Positions 27,472-48,471 of a stretch of 64,000 nucleotides of DNA are shown in pieces. A program made the position numbers and the translations under genes. The notes beneath the pieces were generated by a model. The model saw only the letters and a list, made by a program, of their open reading frames with translations, had not been told where the DNA came from and made no database searches. Position 1 is the first letter of the stretch. Every line of letters starts with the position of its first letter. The stretch comes from Promethearchaeota archaeon (GTDB taxonomy: Archaea; Asgardarchaeota; Lokiarchaeia; Sigyniarchaeales; SOKP01): assembly GCA_018238625.1 (NCBI GenBank), contig JABCSY010000004.1:1-64000 (forward strand). Reading direction: 5' to 3'.

Positions 27472-28704
27472 ATATCTGATTCTATTTCTAAAAAAAAAAT
27501 TGAATATATCCAGCAAAATGACGAATTTGATTATTTAAAAAGCTTAATTAACTCTCTTGAAAAGGGTAATTGCGCTGGAATTTTACTACAAGGTCCACCG
27601 GGTACAGGAAAAACTTTATTGGCGATCTCGCTTGCTAAGGCGTATAAAGCCTCTTACTATATTATTGATGGGTCGCCTGACCTTGATAGAAGAGACATCG
27701 AAGGTAATTGGGAGCTTTTAAAGGGCGAAACTAAATTTAATTACGGTCCTCTTACTTTAGCCATTAAGGATGCAAATAATGAGGGAATAGCTTTTATTAT
27801 TATTAATGAAATTAACGCTATTCGCGAAAATGAACAAATATCGCTAAATTCTCTTTTATCCGAAAATCATATCAACTTAATTTCAAAGGGTTTTGAAAAA
27901 CACGAATTAAATTCTGAAAGTAAATTAATCATTATAGGAACTATGAATAAAGGGGTTATTGGTATTAATAAATTACAAGAAGCTTTTGAGGATCGCTTTA
28001 TCATAACCCCTGAAATATCTTATCCTTTAAAAAACAAAGAAATTGACATTGCGAGCCAAATCTCGGGATGTAAGAAAAAGATTGCTGAGATTGTTGTAGA
28101 TGCTGCTCGCCAAATTAGGAAACAGGCGATCCAAGATTATTCTATAACAAAAATATTTTCAACTCGCTTAGTAGTAAATTTCTGTATGTTAATTTCTCTG
28201 ATGCCCCCTAAATACTTAAAACACAACATCGAAAATGTAATCATCAATAAACTCGGAACTACTACTGAAGAGAAGAAAAGCATCGCCATGATTCTTGATG
28301 GAAAGATGTTCGAAACCAAGTTAAAGGAAGAATTAATAGATAAAAAGACAACGTTAATGAGCCGGGAATGTAAGTTAGATAAAGATTCACTCGACCAACT
28401 ACTTACTAACACTAAAGTATGTTTTACTGATTATATTAGTAAATATGGCCGATCAAATGCGTTTAGACAAAACGGAAATATAATGTGGAAATTGATTCAA
28501 TGGATGTGGTTAAATAAAAGGGAAACTTTACAAAATTATTTTCAACTGACAGAGGTTCTAAGCTTACCTACGCAATACAAACAGCAAACAGGAAAAGAAT
28601 ACATTTACAATGGAAATATAACCTTAAATTATATAAAGTGGATATACCAGAAAAAACCCGAAGAATTAAAGAATTTTATGAAGAAATTGTATCCTGTTTT
28701 ATAA
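27472..28704 (+). CDS. MoxR/CbbQ/NorQ-family AAA+ ATPase (probable non-ATG start)
   Basis: Walker A GPPGTGKT is encoded at 27592-27615, upstream of the ORF-track start. Walker B is 'IIINE', with 'GTMN' and 'DRF' downstream. AGGAGGGG precedes ATT/ATA at 27469/27472. Confidence 0.85.
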   Translation: MSDSISKKKIEYIQQNDEFDYLKSLINSLEKGNCAGILLQGPPGTGKTLLAISLAKAYKASYYIIDGSPDLDRRDIEGNWELLKGETKFNYGPLTLAIKDANNEGIAFIIINEINAIRENEQISLNSLLSENHINLISKGFEKHELNSESKLIIIGTMNKGVIGINKLQEAFEDRFIITPEISYPLKNKEIDIASQISGCKKKIAEIVVDAARQIRKQAIQDYSITKIFSTRLVVNFCMLISLMPPKYLKHNIENVIINKLGTTTEEKKSIAMILDGKMFETKLKEELIDKKTTLMSRECKLDKDSLDQLLTNTKVCFTDYISKYGRSNAFRQNGNIMWKLIQWMWLNKRETLQNYFQLTEVLSLPTQYKQQTGKEYIYNGNITLNYIKWIYQKKPEELKNFMKKLYPVL

Positions 28705-28754
28705 CATATAATATATGTACATTAGCAAAAATCAGATTGAAAAGCTGTGAAATC

Positions 28755-30812
28755 GTGTTAACTGAATTAATAGACCTGTTTGAAAGGGATTTTACTTCCG
28801 ATGTATTAGCTTTAACCAATATTGGGAAACGAATTAGTGGAAACAAGGATATAATGATTCAGTATATAGGCAATATCCCTGCGGTTTATACTGATTGCAA
28901 ATTTATATATTTACCTAACAAATTTAAGGAGGATATAAAAGCGGCTCAAGGGCTTGTTGCTCACGAAAGCGGTCATATAGGATACGGTTCATTTGAACTA
29001 GGATTGATAAAATTGATTGATGTTCTTGCTAAAAAATACAAATTACCACCGCTCTTTATTAAAAACTTAATTAACGTCGTTGAAGATGTAAGAATTAATG
29101 GTATTAATGATAAAAAATTTCCTGGATTTTATAGAAATTTGAGGGAGTTAACAATTAAGATGTTACCACGAATTAAATCATCGATTAAATCGAACAATGA
29201 TATACTCTTATATATCAACTTGTATATGGAAGAATTCGAAGAGTTCCAAAAAAAACCATCTTTAGGAATGTTTAATCTAAGTGAAAAAGATTGGAAAGGG
29301 GTTTTGAAGGTTAAAAAATTTCTTTTAAAGTCGTTAAGCCCTAGCGCTTCTATTATTTCGTGTGATGTGTTATGTAACATTCTCAAAAAGTATTTCCCTG
29401 AAGAAAAATCGAGTTCGACACAAAAGAAAGGTAATCCCAATCCTAATATGAAACCTAATCCTAATATGAACCCCCATCCTCATATGAATACTATCAACCA
29501 TATGGAAATAAATGCTCGAAATAAAAAAAAAAAAGAAAAAACGGATTTAGATAAAATAAGCGAAAAGCTCATAGAAAAACTAAAAGATACTAAGATAAAT
29601 CCCGAGGATTTAGACGATTTAGAGGACCCTGCTGAAAAGTTAAATCCTAAAGCGAATAAAAGCCGTAAAGAAAAAGATAGGGGACAGAAAAAAAGTAAAA
29701 GCAAAAAGAAAGGAAACGGAGAAATAGATAAAGAATCTGATAAAAATAATCAAAGTAAAGATGTAAAGGAATCTGATAAACAGTTTAAAAATAGTTCTCA
29801 AGATGATGAACTTGATGATCTCATCAAGAAAAAATTTAATTTGGATGATTTAAAAAAAGATTTAAAACCAAAGAAAGAAGGTCATACCCCCATTAACAAT
29901 GAAAGAAAAAAAGATAACTTTTTAGCAGAAATTAGAAACCTTGTTAAGAACGCGGATGACGCTATGAAAGAACGACTATTGATTTTAGGGGGAGGTAAAT
30001 ATTTTATCAGTTCAAGTAAGTGTGAACGTGAAAGAAAAGTAATCAATGTTAAAATTGAAAGTCAGAAAATGTGTCCTGACACTATGACTTATGTCCAGAT
30101 TAAGTCTAATTATCAGGGGATAATCAAAAAAATGAAGTTAATTTTTGCTGACTTGAAAAATAAAGCTGCAGTTGACACGTTTCAAAAGAAAGGGAGGCTA
30201 AATAACAAATTTGTAAAGGCAGTTACCAGCGATTATCAATTTAAACAATGCTTTACAAGAAAAATTACAAAGAAAGAATTGAGGTTGCTACTAATAGTAG
30301 ATATTAGTGGAAGCATGAAAGGCGTTAAAATTCGAGCAGCAAAAATAGCCATGGTAATGTTATATGAAGCGCTTGAAGATTTGGCGAAAATTAGAATAGT
30401 TTTATTTACAGGGGGATATGACGCTTTAAATATTTTGGTGAAGGATTTTAACGAACCACTTAAATTAAGATATTTTGATAAATTTGGTTGTCACTCTACT
30501 TCTCGTCAAAATTTAGATGGAATTTCAATAAAACACGAGTCTGAAAAACTGGAAAGGAACGATCTCATAATAGTCGTATCAGATGGGCAACCCTCGGCAG
30601 ACGGGGGGTATAGCTTGTTTGATGCGATACCCGATATTCACGACGTTAGAAAACGCTTCAAAATGTTTGCGTTTTCTATAGATTCTCAAGGTGAATACTT
30701 GAACAAAATGTATGGTAAAGATTGGATACTAACAAGTTCTCGAAACGAGTTAGAGTTAGGAAACAAAATGCTGAAATTTTGCCAAATAATCGTAAAAGAG
30801 TTTTATAGATAA
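28755..30812 (+). CDS. CobT/NorD-like vWA domain protein partnering the AAA+ ATPase
   Basis: N-terminal 'AHESGH...NVVEDVRI', a charged low-complexity linker and C-terminal MIDAS 'DISGSM' and 'SDGQP'. GTG at 28755 is the more plausible start. Confidence 0.8.
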   Translation: MLTELIDLFERDFTSDVLALTNIGKRISGNKDIMIQYIGNIPAVYTDCKFIYLPNKFKEDIKAAQGLVAHESGHIGYGSFELGLIKLIDVLAKKYKLPPLFIKNLINVVEDVRINGINDKKFPGFYRNLRELTIKMLPRIKSSIKSNNDILLYINLYMEEFEEFQKKPSLGMFNLSEKDWKGVLKVKKFLLKSLSPSASIISCDVLCNILKKYFPEEKSSSTQKKGNPNPNMKPNPNMNPHPHMNTINHMEINARNKKKKEKTDLDKISEKLIEKLKDTKINPEDLDDLEDPAEKLNPKANKSRKEKDRGQKKSKSKKKGNGEIDKESDKNNQSKDVKESDKQFKNSSQDDELDDLIKKKFNLDDLKKDLKPKKEGHTPINNERKKDNFLAEIRNLVKNADDAMKERLLILGGGKYFISSSKCERERKVINVKIESQKMCPDTMTYVQIKSNYQGIIKKMKLIFADLKNKAAVDTFQKKGRLNNKFVKAVTSDYQFKQCFTRKITKKELRLLLIVDISGSMKGVKIRAAKIAMVMLYEALEDLAKIRIVLFTGGYDALNILVKDFNEPLKLRYFDKFGCHSTSRQNLDGISIKHESEKLERNDLIIVVSDGQPSADGGYSLFDAIPDIHDVRKRFKMFAFSIDSQGEYLNKMYGKDWILTSSRNELELGNKMLKFCQIIVKEFYR
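29433..29486 (+). repeat. 3x18-bp coding tandem repeat (NPNPNM/KPNPNM/NPHPHM)
   Basis: aatcccaatcctaatatg aaacctaatcctaatatg aacccccatcctcatatg. Confidence 0.8.
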
Positions 30813-34208: not shown

Positions 34209-35318
34209 ATGATGTCTGAAACCTATGAAAACTTTATGATTTATGGATTAGAAAGTACTGGCGAAAAAGTTAGGTTAGATATTACCGAAGAAGATTTTCG
34301 CGCTAATAATGGAACGAACGTATTAAATCCTTACCAAGTACTAGTTATCGTAAAAGAAGGGTTAAGGAGAATCTATATTTGGAAGGGGGTTGAGTCCCCC
34401 GTTAGAAAAAAATTTATTGCGTCGCAAGTCGCCGCACAATTACAAAACGATTTAGTCGTTAATGGTCATTTTCATAGATGTAAGATAATTTCGGTTGACC
34501 AAGGAGACGAACCACGCGATTTCTTGAGAGCGTTTGATTTTGAATCGATAGAAATTCAAGAGATCTCGGAAGCTTACAAAAGCGAGTTTAGACAGATTCA
34601 ACCTATATCTATGGGTAAAGAAAAGAAGGTTTATCAATGGGGGGGACCTCCTCCTGCTTTAAAAGCTAATAGTACGATTAGTAAAAAAGTAAAAGAATCC
34701 GATAGAGAAATTACGCTAAAAAGTAAAGACCCTATTAAACCCCCCGAATTAGATACTAGGAAAATTATCGAAAAGATTGTAAAAAATGAGGTTCCAACCA
34801 ATTTCAAGCGTCAAAATTTGATTTTAGGTAACTTCGAAATTTACGGAGCAGTTATCAAGAAAGCTAAAATTTTCGGAAAAGAAGTGGAAGAGGTCGATTG
34901 GGAGCCAGTTAACTCCTTACCTCACGATATAGTCGAGTTAGATAATCGAACTTTAAGAATTTATTTCGATGGAGAAAATGGGACGATTGAAGGGCTAGAA
35001 ATACTCCAAAAAACGAGCGCCCCTCAAATTGAAGAAAAAAAGGATAACAAATTAGACTATAATAAATGGACGGTAAAAGAATTGAAGCAATATTGCCAAG
35101 AAAGCGACATAAAAATACCTTCGTCGTATAAAAAAGCAGATATTATAAAGCTTATTCAATACGGACCCACTCTAGATGCTATTGACCAGAAGATTGACTA
35201 TAACAAGTGGACGGTAAAGCTATTAAAGGAGTTTTGTCAAAAAAATGATATTAAGGTGCTAACTTCTTATAGAAAAGCAGACTTAGTACGAATTGTGAAA
35301 GAATATAATGAAAAATAA
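34209..35318 (+). CDS. Gelsolin-like domain protein with two C-terminal HeH/SAP/Rho_N-like repeats
   Basis: 'VLVIV...IYIWKG.ES.VRKKFIAS..A..L...IISVDQGDEP.DF' gelsolin fold; twice 'DYNKWTVK.LK..C...DIK...SY.KAD'. Confidence 0.75.
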   Translation: MMSETYENFMIYGLESTGEKVRLDITEEDFRANNGTNVLNPYQVLVIVKEGLRRIYIWKGVESPVRKKFIASQVAAQLQNDLVVNGHFHRCKIISVDQGDEPRDFLRAFDFESIEIQEISEAYKSEFRQIQPISMGKEKKVYQWGGPPPALKANSTISKKVKESDREITLKSKDPIKPPELDTRKIIEKIVKNEVPTNFKRQNLILGNFEIYGAVIKKAKIFGKEVEEVDWEPVNSLPHDIVELDNRTLRIYFDGENGTIEGLEILQKTSAPQIEEKKDNKLDYNKWTVKELKQYCQESDIKIPSSYKKADIIKLIQYGPTLDAIDQKIDYNKWTVKLLKEFCQKNDIKVLTSYRKADLVRIVKEYNEK

Positions 35319-35348: not shown

Positions 35349-38318
35349 TCAATCCTGAGAAGCGTAGAAATCGTCGAAGCTTTCTTGTAACTGAATCATG
35401 TATAGCTTTCTCTTTCCAGGTATAACTTTTTCTGTAAGCGTTTTTGCTTTCTCGTAGCAGGTGGCTGCTTCTACGCGCATTCCTAAGTGTTTATAGGACT
35501 GGGCTAATTTTAGAAAAGTGTGAAATGCGAACCAACTTCTTGGGTTGGCTTCTAAAGCTTGGGTAAATTTCTCGATAGCACCTTTGTAATTTTTTGAGTT
35601 CATTAATACCTCCCCGTATGTATCGTACAGGTTTGCATCGAGAGGTTCGATTTCGATAGCTTTTTCAATTGTCTCAATTGCTTCATCGTATCTTCCAATA
35701 TTACTCAATGAAATGGCTCTATTGTTTAATAACCCTGGCGAGTTTGGATAAAGATCTAAGGCATCGTCAAGAGTCTTGATCACTTCCAAATAATTACCCA
35801 TCGTGTAATGCGTAAAGCTTTTCAGTTGATACAACGATTTACGTTCCTGTGGAAATTTTTTCATCATCTCATCGATAAGAGCCATTACATCACCTCTCAT
35901 ACTATCGTTCGTAATGTACAAGTGAATTTTTGTATTATAGATATCGAAGTGGTCAGGGGTTAATTCAATTGCTTTTTCAATTTCAACTAAAGCCTCTTCA
36001 GTCCCATTTGTCTCATTTAAAATATAACTATACAGTTGATAATACCTAGCCAAATGTTTTTTATTCAGCCCCATTGATATCGCCTTCTCAAATTCCTCAA
36101 CAAAGAGCTCTTTGTTTGCTTTACTCACATCAAAATTGTATACAATGTTGAATCCGTGAACCAATCCGGTAATAATATGAGAAAGTGGGTGATTTATGTA
36201 ATGAAACCTTGCTTTATTGACTATGTCTAAGGCTTTCTCGAACTTTCCTCGTGTTAAATACGAGAAGGATAGTATCAAATACGCTGCTGTATCGATGCGG
36301 GGGTTATGATCGAGTAAATTGATTTTAACTACTTGTTTAATCCAATTTTTCCCCTCTTTATAATTAGTTGTGAATATGTATAATAGAGCTTTCATTACTG
36401 AGAGTTCTAGATCCCTAGGACTTATTTCAATTAATGAATTAATAAGTTCCAAAGGCCCGTCAATTGATTTTACACAGCACTCTTTATCTGTTAGGAGGCA
36501 CAGAAATTTAGTTCGTTGGAGCAAAATATTATCAGGGTATTCAGCTAAAGCTTCTTCTACAACGATTAAAGCTTTATCGTGGTCAAGATTTATTAGTATT
36601 TGGGCTTTTTGAGCAAAAAGCGATGCATCGTAAGCTCTGCTTAACCCAGATTCGATGACTTCTAACGCTCTATTGAATTTACCCATAAAGAAATAGGTTA
36701 TTGATTGAAACAAATAACCAATATATTCATCAGGGTGTTTATTTATGATTTCTTCAGTTAGCTCGAGCGAATCCTCCAATTCTCCATTGCTAGTGTAAAA
36801 TAAATCTTTCAGAATCATTAGTTCAATATCGTTCAAATTTTTTAAATTATCTGTAAGTAATTCGTTCACTTTCGATAGTCTTCCTTTCGCCAACTTACTC
36901 TCTATATTCGCCAAAAACTCAGCGTTCTTAGGGAAGTATTCCTTTTTGAATTGAGATGTTCGAATAAAATTAATTTTGCTCAAATAGAAAATGTCCAAGC
37001 TATCAAAAATTCTGTTGTGTAAGAAGTAATACGCTTCGCTATCGGCTGGTTTGTTTATCGAACTCGCCGTATCAGATGTATCAAAACTTTGAATTACCTC
37101 GAAAACGTTTTGAAAGGCGATCCCTTTTATTTTATCTGTATGGTCGATCAAACTCTTCTCGCTCTCAAATTTATACGCCAAATGCTCGATATACCCCGGA
37201 ATGAATTTTTTTAAAGCCGGTTTCAAATCGTCGTGGAATAAAATACTACACATATCGCCCGTTATATCTTCAAGTAACTCGTTGATATCAGGTATGTGTG
37301 GAGATTGAACGCCACTCGCTTTCTGGAACTTACTCAAATAGGTAAATCTCCTAATGAAATCTTCGATAATTATATTAAGCATTTTTTCTAACCGTTCTTC
37401 AGCCTGAATGTAGTAAGTGTATTTACCGCTTACATTTAGTTTAAAGAAGCATATCGGATAGATGTTATCTTCAACGATCTTCTCAATGAAGAAGTTCAAT
37501 GTTGTTAGCTTTATATCGTATTCTAAAGCAAAATCTTTAGCCGTGATGTAGTTAGGGTATTGATCCGGGTGATTAATAGCGAGATAAAGCAGAATTTTAT
37601 CAAAATCCACCTCGTTGGACAAAGTACTTTCAACCTTAGTATAATCCAACCTGAGCACCATGTTCAAAAATCTGTATTTTATCCCGTTATCATCGATATT
37701 GTATTCTTTAAAAAACTCCGCTACTTTATCTGTTATTACATCAACTCTCTTGCTCTCTTCGTCTAATATCGATTGGCGATCTAAATCGTATTTCTTTAAC
37801 ATATTAAAGTATTCTAGCTCACCTGAATTAGTAATCAGATACTCTCGATTATTTTTCTCAACATAACCATTATCAAGTAATAAATTCAAGTTTTTTGACA
37901 ATGAGGATTGATTGATTTTAAGCGGTTCCTCAAGAAAATCTGACCATTTACAATGGTGGTTATTGTACAACATCCACAGAATCCAATCATCGTAATTTCT
38001 CTTATTTGTTATAGTCTCAGGTGGATAATTCAATGATTTTTCAAGCATATCTTTAACTTGAAGATTGGCATATTGTTTTCGACCTTCAGCTGTAATCTTA
38101 TACTTACCCTTCCTCTCCTTCTCAATAAAACCATTATTAATTAAGATTGTAAGATATTTAGACAAAGTTGCTTGACTTATGTTTACAGGATCTGATTTAA
38201 AATCAGACCATGAACAATGGTCGTTATTGGAGAGCATCCAGAGTATAATATGCTCAAAATTTTTGTTGATTTTCATAGGTGTAATTATACCTTCTGGTGG
38301 AAATTTTGGTATACTCAT
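35349..38318 (-). CDS. Large transcription regulator: two winged-HTH domains plus C-terminal TPR array
   Basis: Two copies of 'ILWML.NN..C.WSDF...P..I.Q..LSK.L..L...G..EK....Y.IT..G'; canonical TPRs such as 'LLNNRAISLSNIGRYDEAIETIEKAIEIEP' and 'YDTYGEVLMNSKNYKGAIEKFTQALEANP'. Confidence 0.85.
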   Translation of the reverse strand: MSIPKFPPEGIITPMKINKNFEHIILWMLSNNDHCSWSDFKSDPVNISQATLSKYLTILINNGFIEKERKGKYKITAEGRKQYANLQVKDMLEKSLNYPPETITNKRNYDDWILWMLYNNHHCKWSDFLEEPLKINQSSLSKNLNLLLDNGYVEKNNREYLITNSGELEYFNMLKKYDLDRQSILDEESKRVDVITDKVAEFFKEYNIDDNGIKYRFLNMVLRLDYTKVESTLSNEVDFDKILLYLAINHPDQYPNYITAKDFALEYDIKLTTLNFFIEKIVEDNIYPICFFKLNVSGKYTYYIQAEERLEKMLNIIIEDFIRRFTYLSKFQKASGVQSPHIPDINELLEDITGDMCSILFHDDLKPALKKFIPGYIEHLAYKFESEKSLIDHTDKIKGIAFQNVFEVIQSFDTSDTASSINKPADSEAYYFLHNRIFDSLDIFYLSKINFIRTSQFKKEYFPKNAEFLANIESKLAKGRLSKVNELLTDNLKNLNDIELMILKDLFYTSNGELEDSLELTEEIINKHPDEYIGYLFQSITYFFMGKFNRALEVIESGLSRAYDASLFAQKAQILINLDHDKALIVVEEALAEYPDNILLQRTKFLCLLTDKECCVKSIDGPLELINSLIEISPRDLELSVMKALLYIFTTNYKEGKNWIKQVVKINLLDHNPRIDTAAYLILSFSYLTRGKFEKALDIVNKARFHYINHPLSHIITGLVHGFNIVYNFDVSKANKELFVEEFEKAISMGLNKKHLARYYQLYSYILNETNGTEEALVEIEKAIELTPDHFDIYNTKIHLYITNDSMRGDVMALIDEMMKKFPQERKSLYQLKSFTHYTMGNYLEVIKTLDDALDLYPNSPGLLNNRAISLSNIGRYDEAIETIEKAIEIEPLDANLYDTYGEVLMNSKNYKGAIEKFTQALEANPRSWFAFHTFLKLAQSYKHLGMRVEAATCYEKAKTLTEKVIPGKRKLYMIQLQESFDDFYASQD

Positions 38319-38340
38319 GATTTAATAATGGTATTGCGTC

Positions 38341-38420
38341 TATATAAGGTTTTTTGTTCGCATCGAACTTCGAAGTTCGTTCGAACTTCTCAAAGTCAAA
38401 CTATATTAAACCTTTCGAAC
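38341..38420. promoter_or_regulatory. Divergent promoter with a palindromic TTCGAA/GAACTTC operator cluster
   Basis: Minus-strand TTATATA at 38341-38347, perfect palindrome CGAACTTCGAAGTTCG at 38364-38379, overlapping inverted repeat GAAGTTCG-tt-CGAACTTC at 38372-38389, plus-strand TATATTAAA at 38402-38410 and a further TTCGAACTT at about 38414. Confidence 0.7.
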
Positions 38421-38469
38421 TTAATCAAATTAACAACAAAAAAAAATAAAAAAAAAGAGGTAAAATAAA

Positions 38470-38544
38470 ATGAAAAAGGATGAAAATAGAAAACTCATAA
38501 AAATGGTAGAATTTAACCCAGCAAATTTAATTTGTAGATATTAA
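38470..38544 (+). CDS. Small peptide 1 (24 aa) MKKDENRKLIKMVEFNPANLICRY
   Basis: GAGGTAA RBS at 38457, ATG 13 nt later, T-tract after the stop; first of three like units. Confidence 0.7.
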   Translation: MKKDENRKLIKMVEFNPANLICRY

Positions 38545-38616
38545 TTAAATAATATTTTTTTTATATAATTTTTAAACCAAAAAAAATTAAAAAAAACAAA
38601 AACGAGGTAAGATAAA

Positions 38617-38688
38617 ATGGAAAAGTACGATGAAAGATTGATAATAATAAGAAACGCGGGATACATTCCTGAGCGTTTAGAGTTTTAA
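38617..38688 (+). CDS. Small peptide 2 (23 aa) MEKYDERLIIIRNAGYIPERLEF
   Basis: GAGGTAA RBS at 38604, ATG 13 nt later, T-tract after the stop. Confidence 0.7.
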   Translation: MEKYDERLIIIRNAGYIPERLEF

Positions 38689-38792
38689 CCTAAATTAATT
38701 TTTTTTAATTCAACATTCAAAATTTAACCAAAACAAAAAACAAATCAAAAAAATTAAAAAACAACCAAAAAATAAAAACGAGGTAAAATGAT

Positions 38793-38867
38793 ATGAAAAG
38801 AAAAGAAAAGGATACCCAAACAATCCTAAACCCGACGGGATATAATACTGCAACATTAAGATTTTAA
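38793..38867 (+). CDS. Small peptide 3 (24 aa) MKRKEKDTQTILNPTGYNTATLRF
   Basis: GAGGTAA RBS at 38780, ATG 13 nt later, T-tract after the stop. Confidence 0.7.
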   Translation: MKRKEKDTQTILNPTGYNTATLRF

Positions 38868-38900
38868 ATTAAATTTTTTTTGTCTTTTTATTTTTACTCC

Positions 38901-39098
38901 TTATTTATTAATACTGCTTTCTATTTCGCTTATTCTTTTTTTACCCATTCTAGTTATCGTGTAATTTCTCTTACTAACTTTGTGAATATAACACTTCTCA
39001 ATGAATAAGCGAAGGTATTTTGATAAAGTTGCTTGACTTATATTTACAAGATCCGATTTAAAATCAGACCATGAACAATATTCGTTAGTATAGAGCAT
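38901..39098 (-). CDS. Stand-alone winged-HTH, duplicate of the regulator N-terminal domain (true start uncertain, possibly pseudogene)
   Basis: 'CSWSDFKSD.VNISQATLSKYL' is shared with 35349..38318. The frame stays open upstream to about 39197 ('IIYPSKEILNKFLDNSQKFEYCILW') without an ATG. Confidence 0.65.
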   Translation of the reverse strand: MLYTNEYCSWSDFKSDLVNISQATLSKYLRLFIEKCYIHKVSKRNYTITRMGKKRISEIESSINK

Positions 39099-39262
39099 CC
39101 AGAGAATGCAGTATTCAAATTTTTGGGAATTATCTAGAAATTTGTTTAAGATTTCTTTAGATGGATAAATTATTTTTCTAATTAATCTAAATTGTCTTTA
39201 TTTTGTTTTATTGAGAAATCCTTGTTCATGTACTAAAAAAAAGATTAAAATTAATTAGAATT

Positions 39263-40168
39263 TTAACTAAATACATTAGTTCCTTTCTGCTCTAAGAGAT
39301 TTCGAATCTTTACGAGATAGCTTCTTTTATAAAATTGAATTTTTGATTCTGAAAAAGGTAATAAACTCCAATAATAAGCCAGAATCTCTTCAGGATGTAA
39401 TCTGTGCTGGTTGTTGTAGGGGTCAATTTCTTCGCACAACTCAAATAATTTAAGTGGAGGAGTTATGAATTTTGGTCGGTTGTTTTCAAATAAAGGCAAG
39501 CATTTATTATCTTTCATTTCAAACTCAAGAAATGTAAAACGGAAGTATTCAAAAAAATATCCACCTCTAAAAGGAGTTTCAGAATAGAGAAAAGGAACTG
39601 CTTTTATCTGGGCCCCGTTATTTTGAAATGTTACATAGCAGTTCTTTCCAATTGTATCCGGATTTGACACATATAGGTGTTTATATTCGTTAGGGACATC
39701 TAATTCGGGACAAGCTGTAAATCCAAGTTTAAGATATAAGTCATTCCGGAATTTTGTGTTAGTAGTGCTAATTACGTGAAAAAGTTCGTGTGCGATTAGT
39801 TCTTTTAATTCGTCGTATGGCCATTGAACCATAGAAATTGGGACATAGATAGAAGTATTCCTCGTGTAAGCGGCATCGCATTCCTCTCGACCTGTGGTTT
39901 TTATAAGTTTAACGCTGTCCAATAGGTATTCTTTGTACGGCGCGTAGCAAATGTCCAATTCGCTGAAAATTCTATTAACGATAATTTCCTCAGAATCTGT
40001 CCATTCAACCGTTTGTCGGGAAAGAAACTCCACCAAGTCTTCTTTCGATACCTTTTCCGTGGTTCCTAAGCGAGACTGTAAGTCAAACTCGCTAAAATTA
40101 GAAATATAATCGTCTTTTTCGGCGATTACGGAAGATGCTGTTTGAGCATCAAGAAGTTCAGCCTTCAA
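39263..40168 (-). CDS. Putative zinc metallopeptidase (HExxH)
   Basis: 'AAYTR...IY' followed by 'LIAHELFHVIS' and a downstream 'HPEEILA'. GGTGA RBS before the TTG. Confidence 0.7.
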   Translation of the reverse strand: MKAELLDAQTASSVIAEKDDYISNFSEFDLQSRLGTTEKVSKEDLVEFLSRQTVEWTDSEEIIVNRIFSELDICYAPYKEYLLDSVKLIKTTGREECDAAYTRNTSIYVPISMVQWPYDELKELIAHELFHVISTTNTKFRNDLYLKLGFTACPELDVPNEYKHLYVSNPDTIGKNCYVTFQNNGAQIKAVPFLYSETPFRGGYFFEYFRFTFLEFEMKDNKCLPLFENNRPKFITPPLKLFELCEEIDPYNNQHRLHPEEILAYYWSLLPFSESKIQFYKRSYLVKIRNLLEQKGTNVFS

Positions 40169-40426: not shown

Positions 40427-41803
40427 ATGGTTTATTTTAAGATTAATGGTTTAGGATATAACTGCGGACTAACCAAGGATAATTGCCCACAGAAAGCGCA
40501 ATCTTGTAGGGAATGTATTAAAAAGCGATTATTGGATTTAGGATTCGAATTTGAGTCAACCTTAGAGGTTATTAAAATTGATTCTGTCGATAAACAGCTT
40601 AAACTAGAAAGAAAGACCATTTGGAAGAAATTTTTAGATGTCTTGAATATCAAACATATTCTCTTAATGGATAAGCGTTCAGGGCTAACTTTATTAAATT
40701 ACGCAGTCTCAGGTGTCGATATTGATGCGGATTTACTGAGCGGCTTTATTCAAGCCAATATTACTTTTTCAGAATCTAGCGAAGTTTCGAACAAAAACAT
40801 CGTACCTTCCTTCGAGTTTCAATTCTACGAATTTCAATATAAGAAGTTTAACATTCTACTTAAAGACGGTGATATTATCAGAGTTTGTTTAATTCTAGAT
40901 CATAAAGCATCCATTAAACTAAGAAATCAAGTATTTCAGTTCTTAGAGGATTTTGAACCTCAATTTAAAGATGAACTTATAGATTTTCGAGAAAGGGGCG
41001 TGTACATTGATTTTCAAGACATGATAGGTTACATCGTTGAGTTTTTTAACATTAACCTTATGTTTCCCATGACTTTAGCTCGCTCGATACCACCTTATGA
41101 ATTAGATAAAGTAAAAAAAAATCGAGTTCAGAAAGCCATATACAACCTCGCAAAAGAAATGCTAGGCATAAAGCCCTTTTTTTTCATAAATAACATGCTC
41201 ATTAGACTAAAAAAAATTGCTGATATTGAGGACGAAGTTATTCTTTATGAACTCTATCAACTATTAGAGCGTAAAATTATATCTCCAACGCCGATAGAAA
41301 CAATTGCAAATAACATTGAGTCAGTTCAGTCCACAGATCAGAATAAATTGATAAAATCGAGTTTAATAGCTCCAATTATTAATAATAATACCGATCTGGG
41401 GGATTTAAAAGAACAATTAACAACTATGGACGTTTACTCAGCGAGTAGATTGATAAGAGAGATTATGAAAAAAGCTCGAGCCGCAGCAAAAGATTCTAAA
41501 TTTCAGGTATCCTTAAATGAATACAATAGAGCGCTATTAATTGCTAAAGAGCTAGATTTTAAAGAAGAAATAGCGAAGATATCGCTTAAGATTTTTAACA
41601 TCGAAAGTAAGTCCAAATACATTGAGCTTGATTTTAATATTGAAAAAGCAGAAAATGCTGAAAAAAAAGGCGATGTATTCAATAGCATCAACTATTATCA
41701 ACATGCGTTAAAAATTCTCGATGAATTCAAGGTGTACAATGTCTTGGATCCCAGAATAAGAAAAATTAAAAAGAAGATCCAAAAACTCAGAGAAGAAATA
41801 TAA
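40427..41803 (+). CDS. Longin-like domain protein with N-terminal Cys cluster and C-terminal TPR-like helices
   Basis: 'IKHILLMDKRSGLTLLNY...DADLLSGFIQA..TF...F.ILLKDGD.IRVCLILD...S..LR.....F...FE' follows the longin/roadblock pattern. N-terminal four-Cys cluster; C-terminal helical repeats. Confidence 0.65.
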   Translation: MVYFKINGLGYNCGLTKDNCPQKAQSCRECIKKRLLDLGFEFESTLEVIKIDSVDKQLKLERKTIWKKFLDVLNIKHILLMDKRSGLTLLNYAVSGVDIDADLLSGFIQANITFSESSEVSNKNIVPSFEFQFYEFQYKKFNILLKDGDIIRVCLILDHKASIKLRNQVFQFLEDFEPQFKDELIDFRERGVYIDFQDMIGYIVEFFNINLMFPMTLARSIPPYELDKVKKNRVQKAIYNLAKEMLGIKPFFFINNMLIRLKKIADIEDEVILYELYQLLERKIISPTPIETIANNIESVQSTDQNKLIKSSLIAPIINNNTDLGDLKEQLTTMDVYSASRLIREIMKKARAAAKDSKFQVSLNEYNRALLIAKELDFKEEIAKISLKIFNIESKSKYIELDFNIEKAENAEKKGDVFNSINYYQHALKILDEFKVYNVLDPRIRKIKKKIQKLREEI

Positions 41804-45609: not shown

Positions 45610-46857
45610 TTACTTTTCTCTTATTTCTTTAAAATATTTTATAATTTTAAGAAACTCTTCCGTTTCTGGAATTAGTTTGATATCTTTATTTAATTCTTTT
45701 TCGTGATATACAAACAGTACTTGGTCTTCAAACAAATTTTTAGCTTTATTGTACTTGAAAGCGGGAATGTAGCCTGTTGGTTTAAATCCGGCATTAAAGA
45801 AAATCGTTTGATGTGCGGGATCATAAGCGGAAATATATGCTTCAAAATAGCGTAGTCTCAATTCCTGAGTTATTGATTTTATCTCTTTTAAAAACACATA
45901 TAACTCCTCTAAATTTGAAACTTTATAAACCACTTTTTCTGCGATACAGATATTATCGTAGTGTAAAAATTCAAAGAAAGAATTAGTTCCTTTTATCGAA
46001 ATAGTAATTTGCTCGTTACCAAACTTGTCCCTTTCAGCTCTTCTCTTTAAAAGCGAGCTTATGTTTACAATTTTATCCTTATCTAATTCTGAATCTAATG
46101 TATCGTAATTTTTTATTGCAGGCAGTCCTAAACTATAGTTTTGAAAAGCGTAAAAATAACAGAAAATCGCCTGAGATATTATTTTAGGTTTTTCAGAGCT
46201 TCTGTAATTAAATAATGCTTTCCGATTGTAAATAATAAATAAGATTTCTGATTCGGAATGGTTAAAAAATATGTCCTTATTAGGGAAAAACGCTGTTGGG
46301 TTAAATCCTGTTAACTTTGCTATATGTTGGATACTAGAAAAACTTGAGCGAATTTCAGCAAACCAAATTAATATTTGATCTTTAAATTTATACATAGGAG
46401 CAACCACACAGGCGATACTAGCAGTGGATATGTCTGCTTTATGTTGATAGTTCTTTCTAAAGGCGAAGCCAAAAAAATTTCCAATTTTTTTTTCAAAATC
46501 GAGGTGAAGGCCAATACATCCTATTACTTTGTTGGGTTTAAATCTAAAAATTATCCAATAATAATTGGGACTTCTTATCATGCTCCGAACTTCAGAGATA
46601 TCCTCCATTCTTTTATAAGGATAAGTATTTTCATAAACTTCCTTGAAGATATTTGTGATTTCCTCTGCGTCCTCTTCTGTGGCAAACTTTAATGAGGGAA
46701 TTCTCTTTCCGTTCCTTATGGGGTTTTCAAAATCATACCCTTTTTCTAAATCCATTTTCCTTGAGTAAGGATAATTTTTGAGCATATCCTCAATAGTAAT
46801 GATATCCTCTTTAGATTTAGAAACACTTTTAGAAAACATTATTAAACGGCTATCCAT
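45610..46857 (-). CDS. GNAT-fold protein (multi-domain)
   Basis: 'FATEEDAEEI..IFKEVY..TYPY', 'GF.PTAFFPNKD', 'GFKPTGYIPAF' give repeated GNAT-like C-terminal motifs. Confidence 0.6.
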   Translation of the reverse strand: MDSRLIMFSKSVSKSKEDIITIEDMLKNYPYSRKMDLEKGYDFENPIRNGKRIPSLKFATEEDAEEITNIFKEVYENTYPYKRMEDISEVRSMIRSPNYYWIIFRFKPNKVIGCIGLHLDFEKKIGNFFGFAFRKNYQHKADISTASIACVVAPMYKFKDQILIWFAEIRSSFSSIQHIAKLTGFNPTAFFPNKDIFFNHSESEILFIIYNRKALFNYRSSEKPKIISQAIFCYFYAFQNYSLGLPAIKNYDTLDSELDKDKIVNISSLLKRRAERDKFGNEQITISIKGTNSFFEFLHYDNICIAEKVVYKVSNLEELYVFLKEIKSITQELRLRYFEAYISAYDPAHQTIFFNAGFKPTGYIPAFKYNKAKNLFEDQVLFVYHEKELNKDIKLIPETEEFLKIIKYFKEIREK

Positions 46858-47175: not shown

Positions 47176-48471
47176 ATGGAAGAATTAACTACGAAAAAAA
47201 CGTTTAGGCATTACCTTTATTTTATGTTTGGGCAACAGTTTTCGCTGTTAGGCTCAGGAATTGTTGGTTTTGTAATCGCGTGGTGGATTACGATTGAAAC
47301 ACAGAGTGCTGTGTTTCTTTCAATTGCGGTATTTGTAATATTTGTACCGCAAGTTATTGTTACGCCATTTGCAGGCGTCTTAGCTGATAGGGTGAACCGT
47401 AAAACGATTATCTTTATGGTAGATTCTCTTCAAGCGGTTTTAACTTTTGTATTGTTCCTATTTTTCTTTATAGGATTAATTAATATTTGGGTGATATTTG
47501 TAATACATACTTTGCGCAGCGTTCTTTTTGCGTTTCACGTACCAGCATTTCAAGCGATTATTCCATCTATGGTCCCAAAAGAAAGATTAACTCAAATTAA
47601 TGGCTTCAATTTTCTTATTTCGGGAGTGGTTTTTATAATAGGACCCTTATTGTCGGCTATACTTTTAGAATTGTTTCCAATAACATTTATTTTTTTAATT
47701 GATGTTCTGACTTTTGTAATGGCTCTAATTCCGTTGCTATTGATAACAATTCCCCACGAAAATAAATCCTTAAAGGAATCAGAATCAGAAAAGAAATCGT
47801 TCACGAGAGAATTCAAGGAAGGTTTCCTTGTCGTAAAAGCAGTGCCAGGTCTCTTAAGCATGATAGTATTTGCTATGATTTTTAACTTCATAAATAGACC
47901 TTTTAACGTGTTATGGCCTTACTTTATTAACATAACACATGGTGGAACAGCGCTACATTTGGCTTTACTTTTTGGTTCTATGCAGATAGGAAGATTGCTT
48001 GGCTCTTTAATTACATCGATCAAAAAAGAGTGGAAACATAAGATCAAAATCAATATAATTGGAGCATCGATATTTTTTGCCTCGTATTTACTAATAGGTC
48101 TTGCACCCTATCAATCGTTTAATTTAATGATGATTGGTGGATTTTTCGGTGCGATAATCTTTCCAATAACAGTAGCTACTTATTTAACGATATTACAAAC
48201 AGTAGTTCCTTCGGACAAAATAGGAAGAGTTATGTCAATAGATCATACGATTTCTATGGCAATAGCCCCTATTGGTGCTCTAATGGCGGGACCTATGGCG
48301 GATTTAATAGGTATTAATACTTTATTAGTTATTTGCGCTTTCGTGGGTATTATCTATCCCTTTCTCTTATGGATTTTCACAAAGATTAGATATCTCGAAC
48401 ATCCTCGAGAAAAGGAGGAAATAGTTGTACCTAAACAAGAAATAATAGAATTGAAAACTCAAAAAGCTTAA
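47176..48471 (+). CDS. MFS transporter (MefA/DHA3 efflux-like)
   Basis: 'GQQFSLLGS', 'PFAGVLADRVNRK', 'LQTVVPSDKIGRV'; about 12 TM segments. Confidence 0.9.
   Translation: MEELTTKKTFRHYLYFMFGQQFSLLGSGIVGFVIAWWITIETQSAVFLSIAVFVIFVPQVIVTPFAGVLADRVNRKTIIFMVDSLQAVLTFVLFLFFFIGLINIWVIFVIHTLRSVLFAFHVPAFQAIIPSMVPKERLTQINGFNFLISGVVFIIGPLLSAILLELFPITFIFLIDVLTFVMALIPLLLITIPHENKSLKESESEKKSFTREFKEGFLVVKAVPGLLSMIVFAMIFNFINRPFNVLWPYFINITHGGTALHLALLFGSMQIGRLLGSLITSIKKEWKHKIKINIIGASIFFASYLLIGLAPYQSFNLMMIGGFFGAIIFPITVATYLTILQTVVPSDKIGRVMSIDHTISMAIAPIGALMAGPMADLIGINTLLVICAFVGIIYPFLLWIFTKIRYLEHPREKEEIVVPKQEIIELKTQKA

Follow-up and report, generated by a model that had tools for sequence, protein, structure and literature searches.

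Probable short peptide genes divergent from a winged-helix and TPR regulator gene in a Promethearchaeota archaeon

Three short open reading frames in an A-rich stretch

The DNA analysed here (hereafter the window) is a stretch of 64,000 nt from contig JABCSY010000004.1 of a Promethearchaeota archaeon. Between the gene of a 989-aa protein with DNA-binding domains (35349-38318, minus strand; hereafter the regulator) and a small open reading frame (ORF; 38901-39098, minus strand), an A-rich stretch of 580 nt holds three short ORFs (sORFs) on the plus strand. The sORFs are divergent from the regulator gene and lie 152-549 nt from its start. Each of them belongs to a unit of the same build. Unit A (38457-38562) consists of a Shine-Dalgarno (SD) sequence at 38457-38463, a coding sequence of 24 codons at 38470-38544 and a run of eight T at 38555-38562. 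The corresponding elements of unit B (38604-38706) are located at 38604-38610, 38617-38688 (23 codons) and 38699-38706, and those of unit C (38780-38881) at 38780-38786, 38793-38867 (24 codons) and 38874-38881. An A-rich leader stands ahead of each sORF. The SD sequence is GAGGTAA in every unit (from 38457, 38604 and 38780), the ATG follows at an offset of 13 nt (38470, 38617 and 38793), and the stop codon, behind which the T-run lies, is TAA in all three.

This three-unit layout had been pointed out in a sequence-only reading of the window, and the description proved exact. GAGGTAA-N6-ATG was matched three times in the window, in each case at one of these sORFs, where 0.08 matches were expected and none of 100 shuffled sequences reached three. 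A relaxed pattern (GAGGT[AG]A, 5-7 nt, ATG) gave 67 matches in the 4.29-Mb assembly. Thirty-one of them stand ahead of ORFs of 45 aa or less, and 8 of those ORFs have at least 20 aa. When the 30 nt upstream were inspected by eye, an A-rich leader combined with an ORF of at least 20 codons was seen at the three window units only. Among 1995 ORFs of at least 250 aa in the host, GAGG occurs most often 13-14 nt before the ATG (29 and 28 of 216 occurrences). At positions -8 to -12 upstream of the starts, G is over-represented. Since the spacing at the sORFs equals this genomic mode, it is the organism's own.

The encoded peptides begin with a charged N-terminus, which is followed by a short hydrophobic strand and a turn containing Asn, and they end in a hydrophobic-basic-aromatic C-terminus. 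All three can be aligned as one family, as the resemblance of their C-termini noted in the sequence-only reading had suggested, and the conserved portion of each is its C-terminal half. The exact peptide sequences had no match among about 15 billion predicted proteins. This fact fits the idea, also put forward in that reading, that the sORFs have been overlooked by normal annotation. Three metatranscriptome runs from the same sample or study gave a word share of 0.00. Their contigs, compared with 37800-39300 at 85% likeness, yielded only low-complexity A-rich pieces of 31-60 nt at 38730-38778, with 4-6 mismatches, and are uninformative on transcription.

Orthologues of the regulator were found in 12 genomes including that of the window (61-100% identity), and 11 of the loci have upstream sequence; the twelfth (L010) begins at a contig end. 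In all 11 loci, SD-preceded sORFs of 22-29 codons are located on the divergent strand. The sequence-only reading had proposed a search upstream of homologous regulators, and its outcome was thus positive. The orthologous sORFs fall into three types, which match the window genes one to one and keep the order A-B-C. All 11 loci have type B, whilst 9 have type A and 7 have type C. Two type B copies have a GTG start, and six columns of the type B alignment are invariant. Length differences among the called sORFs are whole codons. The array had been thought to be a diversified cassette. What stood of this claim is that the peptide genes are conserved and tightly linked to the regulator gene; they are not one cassette diversifying in place. 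To judge from the alignments, A, B and C are three old paralogue types in fixed order.

The pooled ratio of nonsynonymous to synonymous changes (pN/pS) was 0.69 for type A and about 0.5 for each of types B and C. Compared over all six frames, the ratio of the sense frame was 0.69 against 0.71-0.93 in the other frames for A, 0.51 against 0.64-1.68 for B and 0.51 against 0.68-1.52 for C. The sense frame was thus the lowest of the six for A, B and C, and it was also the lowest for X, a neighbouring protein described below. A check of the dN/dS type had likewise been proposed in the sequence-only reading; the constraint seen here is moderate. The SD sequence at its fixed distance, the start, the stop and the length are retained in species whose sequences have diverged at about 30-50% of synonymous sites. 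The sORFs accordingly show what is usual for small-protein genes, namely a start with a ribosome-binding site, a conserved frame and length, and purifying selection in frame, although the pN/pS values are moderate and the choice of frame is partly circular. From these comparisons, the sORFs are very probably real translated genes.

A profile built from the peptides was run on 14,878 short stop-to-stop frames, from both strands, of 70 loci that hold 72 regulator-family copies. It returned 38 matches with E values of 7e-5 or lower, and the next E value was 0.061. All 38 matches are divergent from a long-form regulator and lie 223-1048 nt from its start. In the assembly of the window itself (165,579 frames), the profile returned the three window sORFs only (E values of 8.6e-7, 7.2e-10 and 2.6e-10 for A, B and C, respectively; the next was 0.27). 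When 42 genomes of the genus were searched in six frames, 36 matches turned up in 18 genomes, and 34 of these matches are within 2.8 kb of a regulator copy. The same six-frame search of 109 genomes from 23 other genera of the order gave no match, so that the profile does not fire by chance. The peptides, as far as their sequences tell, are a new, genus-restricted family of 21-29 residues in Promethearchaeota (Asgard archaea of the Lokiarchaeia type), without database relatives.

The regulator family and the control region

The regulator starts with two winged helix-turn-helix (wHTH) domains. Its middle part, which is modelled poorly, may contain a third wHTH, and helical repeats resembling tetratricopeptide repeats (TPRs) take up about 545 aa. 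Pfam matches include HTH_45 (1.5e-11), HTH_34, MarR and HTH_5 as well as many TPR families (TPR_2, 1.9e-27). Its orthologues in 10 species have 61-87% identity. An AlphaFold2 (AF2) model, of low confidence (predicted local distance difference test 64, predicted template modelling score 0.35), showed wHTH strands and helices at residues 21-75 and 109-162 and helical hairpins at 445-989. The TPR repeats are consensus-like. With this low-confidence model, the best PDB sequence and fold matches were designed TPRs, OGT/SPINDLY, LbcA and APC/C, and no RRNPPA receptor was among the matches listed.

Two putative control elements lie between the regulator gene and unit A, together with a conserved palindrome. 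A TATA-like box of the regulator gene is located at 38340-38349 on the minus strand, about 25 nt before the ATG, so close that the regulator mRNA would be leaderless or have a short leader. A TATA-like box of the peptide array is located at 38398-38411 on the plus strand. Both boxes, whose functions are putative, are kept in 6 of 6 aligned orthologous intergenic regions, and the TATA-like element of the regulator gene was also seen across the intergenic regions of the regulator family. Between the two boxes lies a putative operator (38364-38389), in which a perfect 16-bp palindrome is followed by its 8-bp unit for a third time; the unit occurs a fourth time at 38415-38422, just downstream of the TATA-like box of the array. 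The operator block is invariant in the 6 aligned orthologues (alignment columns 51-71) and present in 11 of 11 upstream regions. Its 14-bp core has no second copy in the 4.29-Mb assembly. When up to 2 mismatches were allowed, 10 sites were found, where 13.6 were expected, and none beyond chance. A wider regulon is therefore not definable. The same bidirectional layout was found in 69 intergenic regions of the regulator family, where related hexamers are about 6-10 times as frequent as in other parts of the loci. Autoregulated divergent promoter pairs classically have this layout, and the regulator would be expected to bind here.

The sequence-only reading mentioned neither this conserved putative operator nor a further protein that opens the array in relatives. 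This protein, X, has 70-95 aa. Its gene comes first in the divergent unit in 9 of 11 orthologous loci, and the same holds for 13 of the 14 paralogous loci with peptides that were examined. Judged by its sequence, X is coding beyond doubt; other frames are open in 0 of 9 copies. X belongs to 76 database clusters, all hypothetical and without a Pfam domain, some of them source-labelled Promethearchaeota archaeon. No significant family was found in Pfam (best E value 0.093, far below the cut-off) and no usable match in the ESM Atlas. In the AF2 model of X, the N-terminal half is disordered and residues 50-94 form a single long helix. A likeness of the C-terminus of X to the peptides was considered and dropped, because the model makes that part a helix. 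DNA alignment showed that X is deleted in the genome of the window and in G034, the promoter region of the window being joined straight to the leader of peptide A. In G020, peptide A was lost instead of X.

On the 3' side of the regulator gene, the order hydrolase, major facilitator superfamily (MFS) protein, gelsolin/HeH protein, regulator is largely kept, with the gelsolin and MFS genes in 10 of 10 orthologous loci and the hydrolase gene in 7 of 10. The neighbours beyond the peptides vary across the same 10 loci. Since the 3' flank is syntenic and the far flank is variable, the conserved module consists of the regulator, X and the peptides.

When the N-terminal 420 residues of the regulator were used as query, 33 of 36 other genomes of the genus gave matches, up to 8 per genome. 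Elsewhere in the class, the same query matched in 1 of 24 genomes, so that the family hardly extends beyond the genus. In a quick tree of the regulator copies, the peptide-bearing ones stand on both sides of the midpoint root; the association with peptides is therefore old within the family. The peptide variants differ from one regulator subclade to the next.

Members of the regulator family are always paired divergently with a first gene 160-320 nt away, and the partner differs by subclade. Some subfamilies are paired with X and peptides, some with X-like proteins without peptides, and others with different genes. Seven exemplars of the divergent partners were scanned. Two are small GTPases of the Ras family (E values of 5e-41 and 3e-43), one has a HATPase_c domain (1e-18), and four are membrane proteins or unassigned. 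The partners without a Pfam family are membrane proteins of 125-131 aa or proteins of 180-260 aa. Taken by their sequences, these pairings, noted at loci including L034, L041, L043, L049, L052 and L066, suggest a regulator network that is specific to the lineage and centred on Asgard signalling genes. On contig C8 of the window's own genome (G000, positions 1-2074), a short-form paralogue has 47% identity over residues 1-419, and related repeats resembling the operator lie ahead of it. Only 238 nt upstream of this paralogue, the contig breaks off inside an A-rich stretch resembling the peptide leaders, and a further array may have been lost in the assembly gap.

Possible roles of the peptides

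One joint explanation covers these observations best, and we give it a probability of roughly 60%. The sORFs would be genuine genes, they would form a divergent unit in a circuit with the wHTH-TPR protein, and the peptides would act as intracellular small binding partners. The peptide genes, with X in most relatives, would be expressed as one unit divergent from the gene of the regulator with its two wHTH domains. The regulator would bind the palindromic operator and thereby control both itself and the peptide array. Since the operator and both TATA-like boxes are conserved and the operator is unique in the genome, control of both promoters by the wHTH-TPR protein is the most likely circuit, and regulation of the sORFs through the palindrome by their neighbour is probable.

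Inside the cell, the prime candidate target of the peptides would be the TPR superhelix of the regulator, which would give a feedback loop. TPR superhelices bind short peptides. Alternatively, the peptides may be a regulated output that acts on another partner. Because the regulator family pairs divergently with unrelated genes, adjacency argues for a regulator and its target, not for a receptor and its ligand. The conservation of the C-terminal half, the co-inheritance of regulator and peptide variants and the uniqueness of the operator are left in favour of feedback on the regulator. Owing to this uniqueness, the peptides and X are the only visible output of the module. As matters stand in these sequences, binding of the peptides to the neighbouring regulator is a tentative and rather doubtful proposal. 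A complex prediction for regulator residues 181-989 with peptide B (23 aa) scored 0.00 in 2 runs; it had no controls, the peptide is below the calibrated size of the tool, and the result was used neither way.

Several facts weigh against the joint explanation. The sORFs of the orthologues were chosen as open frames with an SD-like motif, so that their openness is partly circular. The pN/pS values of 0.5-0.7 point to moderate constraint, and the sense frame of type A is barely separated from the rest, which lends this type weak support. The antisense -1 frame, which has the wobble position in common with the sense frame, is open in 7 of 9 A, 9 of 11 B and 4 of 7 C copies because that strand is T-rich, and the strand is therefore not settled by patterns of codon position alone. 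The direction of the sORFs is fixed by the SD sites, the T-runs and the clearly coding neighbour X, all of which point one way. The regulator is poorly modelled, and its DNA binding and its use of the operator are inferred. When only copies with 500 nt or more of sequence upstream are counted, peptide matches were found beside 22 of 35 long-form regulators (about 820-1000 aa) and 0 of 33 short-form ones (about 635 aa). Genome G024 has two orphan A+B pairs (L081 and L082) without an adjacent regulator. In G007 (L077, contig C22), a second complete A-B-C array lies 1.5 kb past the first, behind an exonuclease-like gene and about 1000-2900 nt beyond the regulator start, with a GTTTT-type microsatellite between the two arrays. 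The orphan pairs and the second array have in common a promoter-proximal inverted repeat that is unlike the regulator operator. Orphan and second arrays show that the link between peptides and regulator is not obligatory.

With the joint explanation, the peptides would resemble archaeal micro-proteins, among which a 23-residue one of Methanosarcina mazei modulates glutamine synthetase. They have in common the size class, translation signals of their own, the lack of a signal peptide, the fact that annotation missed them, and a presumed intracellular action by binding a larger protein. They differ from the M. mazei modulator in having no sequence relation to it, in forming a paralogous array under a dedicated divergent regulator and in being found in one genus only. 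The general kind, micro-protein genes under a dedicated divergent regulator and possibly a peptide-TPR pair, is known elsewhere; the peptide family itself is new.

It is worth considering another interpretation, in which the module is an archaeal analogue of Rgg/SHP or PlcR/PapR, that is, of RRNPP-like signalling. The peptides would leave the cell and might be cut down to their conserved C-terminal halves; after re-import, they would be bound by the TPR repeats of the regulator, which would then switch the divergent promoters. In the Rgg/SHP systems of Bacillota, too, short peptide genes are divergent from the regulator gene. The likeness to RRNPPA systems, especially Rgg/SHP, lies in a regulator of the cytoplasm that has a DNA-binding domain at its N-terminus and TPR or TPR-like repeats towards its C-terminus, beside which small genes for peptides (21-29 aa here) are conserved, both in orthologues and in several paralogue clades. 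It extends to the C-terminal location of the conserved part of each peptide and to the presence of many paralogous cassettes per genome, with up to 8 copies of the family and a peptide variant for each regulator subclade. The unique operator, which makes the module self-contained, also speaks for this interpretation. MFS_3-type transporters lie 1.1-8 kb from the arrays in 4 contexts, which is only a lead, as the genome has about 7 paralogues.

The differences are, however, considerable. When 38 aligned peptides were read by eye, no signal segment was seen; their N-termini are charged and the longest uncharged hydrophobic run has 3-5 residues. Neither ABC or Opp-type genes nor a known exporter or processing protease were found among the neighbour proteins scanned. 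The regulator has two winged-helix domains of the HTH_45/MarR type, whereas RRNPPA proteins have an XRE-type HTH or the three-helix bundle of Rap, and with 989 aa, about 545 of them in repeats, it is far larger. Among the matches listed, it showed no sequence similarity or preferential fold similarity to RRNPPA receptors, the best fold matches being generic TPR proteins. Divergent pairing with non-peptide partners is a habit of the whole family. For one receptor, it would be unusual that three different peptides stay together as a set and are also duplicated together; a helical protein of 70-95 aa accompanies them in relatives, and orphan arrays occur without a receptor. The host is an archaeon, and in the two reports consulted, RRNPPA systems are described in Bacillota and their mobile elements only (PMC10075063, PMC9765709). 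On balance, signalling of the RRNPP type is unlikely. Export of the peptides as signals is, from their sequences, slightly less likely again. Equally improbable is the idea of a first archaeal peptide receptor-ligand module, in which leaderless peptides of 21-29 aa would be exported, possibly via MFS_3, and sensed by the TPR repeats in private channels within the genus.

The peptides could also be precursors of ribosomally synthesized and post-translationally modified peptides (RiPPs), each with a charged leader and a short core that enzymes encoded elsewhere in the genome would modify. Like tandem RiPP precursors, they are encoded by several short related ORFs in a row and have a variable N-terminal part ahead of a conserved short core, here with Asn, Gly and aromatic residues. 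Winged-helix domains can serve as leader-recognition elements in RiPP enzymes. Against this stands the composition of the neighbourhood. Radical-SAM, YcaO, lanthionine synthetase, ATP-grasp and peptidase families were all absent from the 15 neighbour proteins scanned, so that modifying enzymes are not co-located with the array, and no maturase, exporter, peptidase or immunity gene is conserved beside the peptides across the 10 orthologous loci, where the flank beyond the array is itself not conserved. A 301-aa HExxH protein is present in 2 of the 10 loci only. Moreover, the aligned peptides have no conserved Cys, Ser or Thr patterns, and they are shorter than most precursors made of leader and core. 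A role as RiPP precursors is therefore quite unlikely.

Another possibility is that the ORFs are incidental and that the conserved thing is non-coding, either promoter and terminator repeats or small RNAs controlled by the regulator. The units are indeed very A-rich with T-tract ends, and the constraint on amino acids (pN/pS of 0.5-0.7) is moderate. Start, SD distance, stop and length are nevertheless kept despite the divergence at synonymous sites, and the sense frame is the best of six. The sORF bodies contain more G (15-24%) than the spacers (4-6%). Rfam and tRNA searches of the sORF stretch gave no match, and folding of the three units compared with shuffled sequences was not unusual (z = 0.37, -1.24 and 0.16). 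The absence of profile matches from the 109 outgroup genomes also speaks against this possibility. We regard a non-coding origin as very improbable. That hydrophobic antisense ORFs (such as one of 48 aa at 38710-38856, minus strand) are the real genes, encoding membrane peptides like type-I toxins with the sense units as their antisense regulators, is hardly credible, because the openness of the -1 frame and its common wobble position, on which the idea draws, are offset by the scarcity of stop codons expected on a T-rich strand, by antisense frames closed in some orthologues where the sense frame is open in every called one (though these were selected as open), by the lack of a conserved SD or start on that strand with SD motifs, T-tracts and X pointing the opposite way, and by pN/pS values above those of the sense frame.

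The joint explanation of genuine peptide genes under a divergent regulator has a wider bearing. Mining of Asgard genomes has aimed mostly at eukaryote-like proteins, and standard annotation does not see genes of less than about 30 codons. Here a comparatively well-supported family of small genes comes with a dedicated regulator and a defined putative operator. Insight into one member of the regulator family may open the lineage-specific network around Asgard signalling genes such as Ras-family GTPases and HATPase_c proteins. If the peptides were ligands of the TPR repeats, the regulator would represent a new case of a transcription factor that senses peptides, one that evolved independently. 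If they were exported, this would be the first peptide signalling system in Archaea and a convergent counterpart of RRNPPA systems in the closest prokaryotic relatives of eukaryotes. We found no published literature on these peptides, on X or on archaeal peptide signalling, although supplements, for example that of PMC10075063 (RRNPP_detector screen), could name matches outside Bacillota.

Neighbouring genes

The 15 neighbour proteins compared with Pfam comprised alpha/beta hydrolases, MFS, gelsolin/HeH, GNAT and ThiF proteins; 7 had no family. The small ORF on the far side of the array (38901-39098, minus strand) encodes 65 aa, within an open frame of 98 aa that extends to about 39131, and has 54% identity to residues 17-87 of the regulator, in the region of its first wHTH. 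Its Pfam match to HTH_45 (9.6e-5) is below the cut-off. A counterpart at the same place was found in 1 of 10 orthologous loci (L075), and a 68-aa ORF is present in L006 of G002. The ORF is either a stand-alone wHTH paralogue or the remnant of a duplicated regulator, and its membership of the system is uncertain.

Beyond it, a gene at 39263-40168 (minus strand) encodes the 301-aa protein with an HExxH-type motif, which may be an unclassified metallopeptidase and is 83-90% conserved where it occurs. It was considered as a processing protease of the system and rejected, since it is present in so few of the orthologous loci and has no Pfam family.

MFS_3-type genes ('transmembrane secretion effector') near the arrays are located in the window at 47176-48471 (plus strand) and in L033, L074 and L081; these contexts include one paralogous and one orphan array. 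With the paralogues present in the host genome, their proximity may be due to chance. Three further ORFs of the window have no Pfam family, namely those at 40427-41803 (plus strand, 458 aa), 28638-30812 (plus strand, 724 aa) and 45610-46857 (minus strand, 415 aa). The 369-aa protein encoded at 34209-35318 (plus strand), which adjoins the 3' end of the regulator gene in 10 of 10 loci, has a gelsolin repeat (2.2e-4, at the Pfam cut-off) and two C-terminal motifs of the HeH/SAP-like type (HeH, 1.2e-8).

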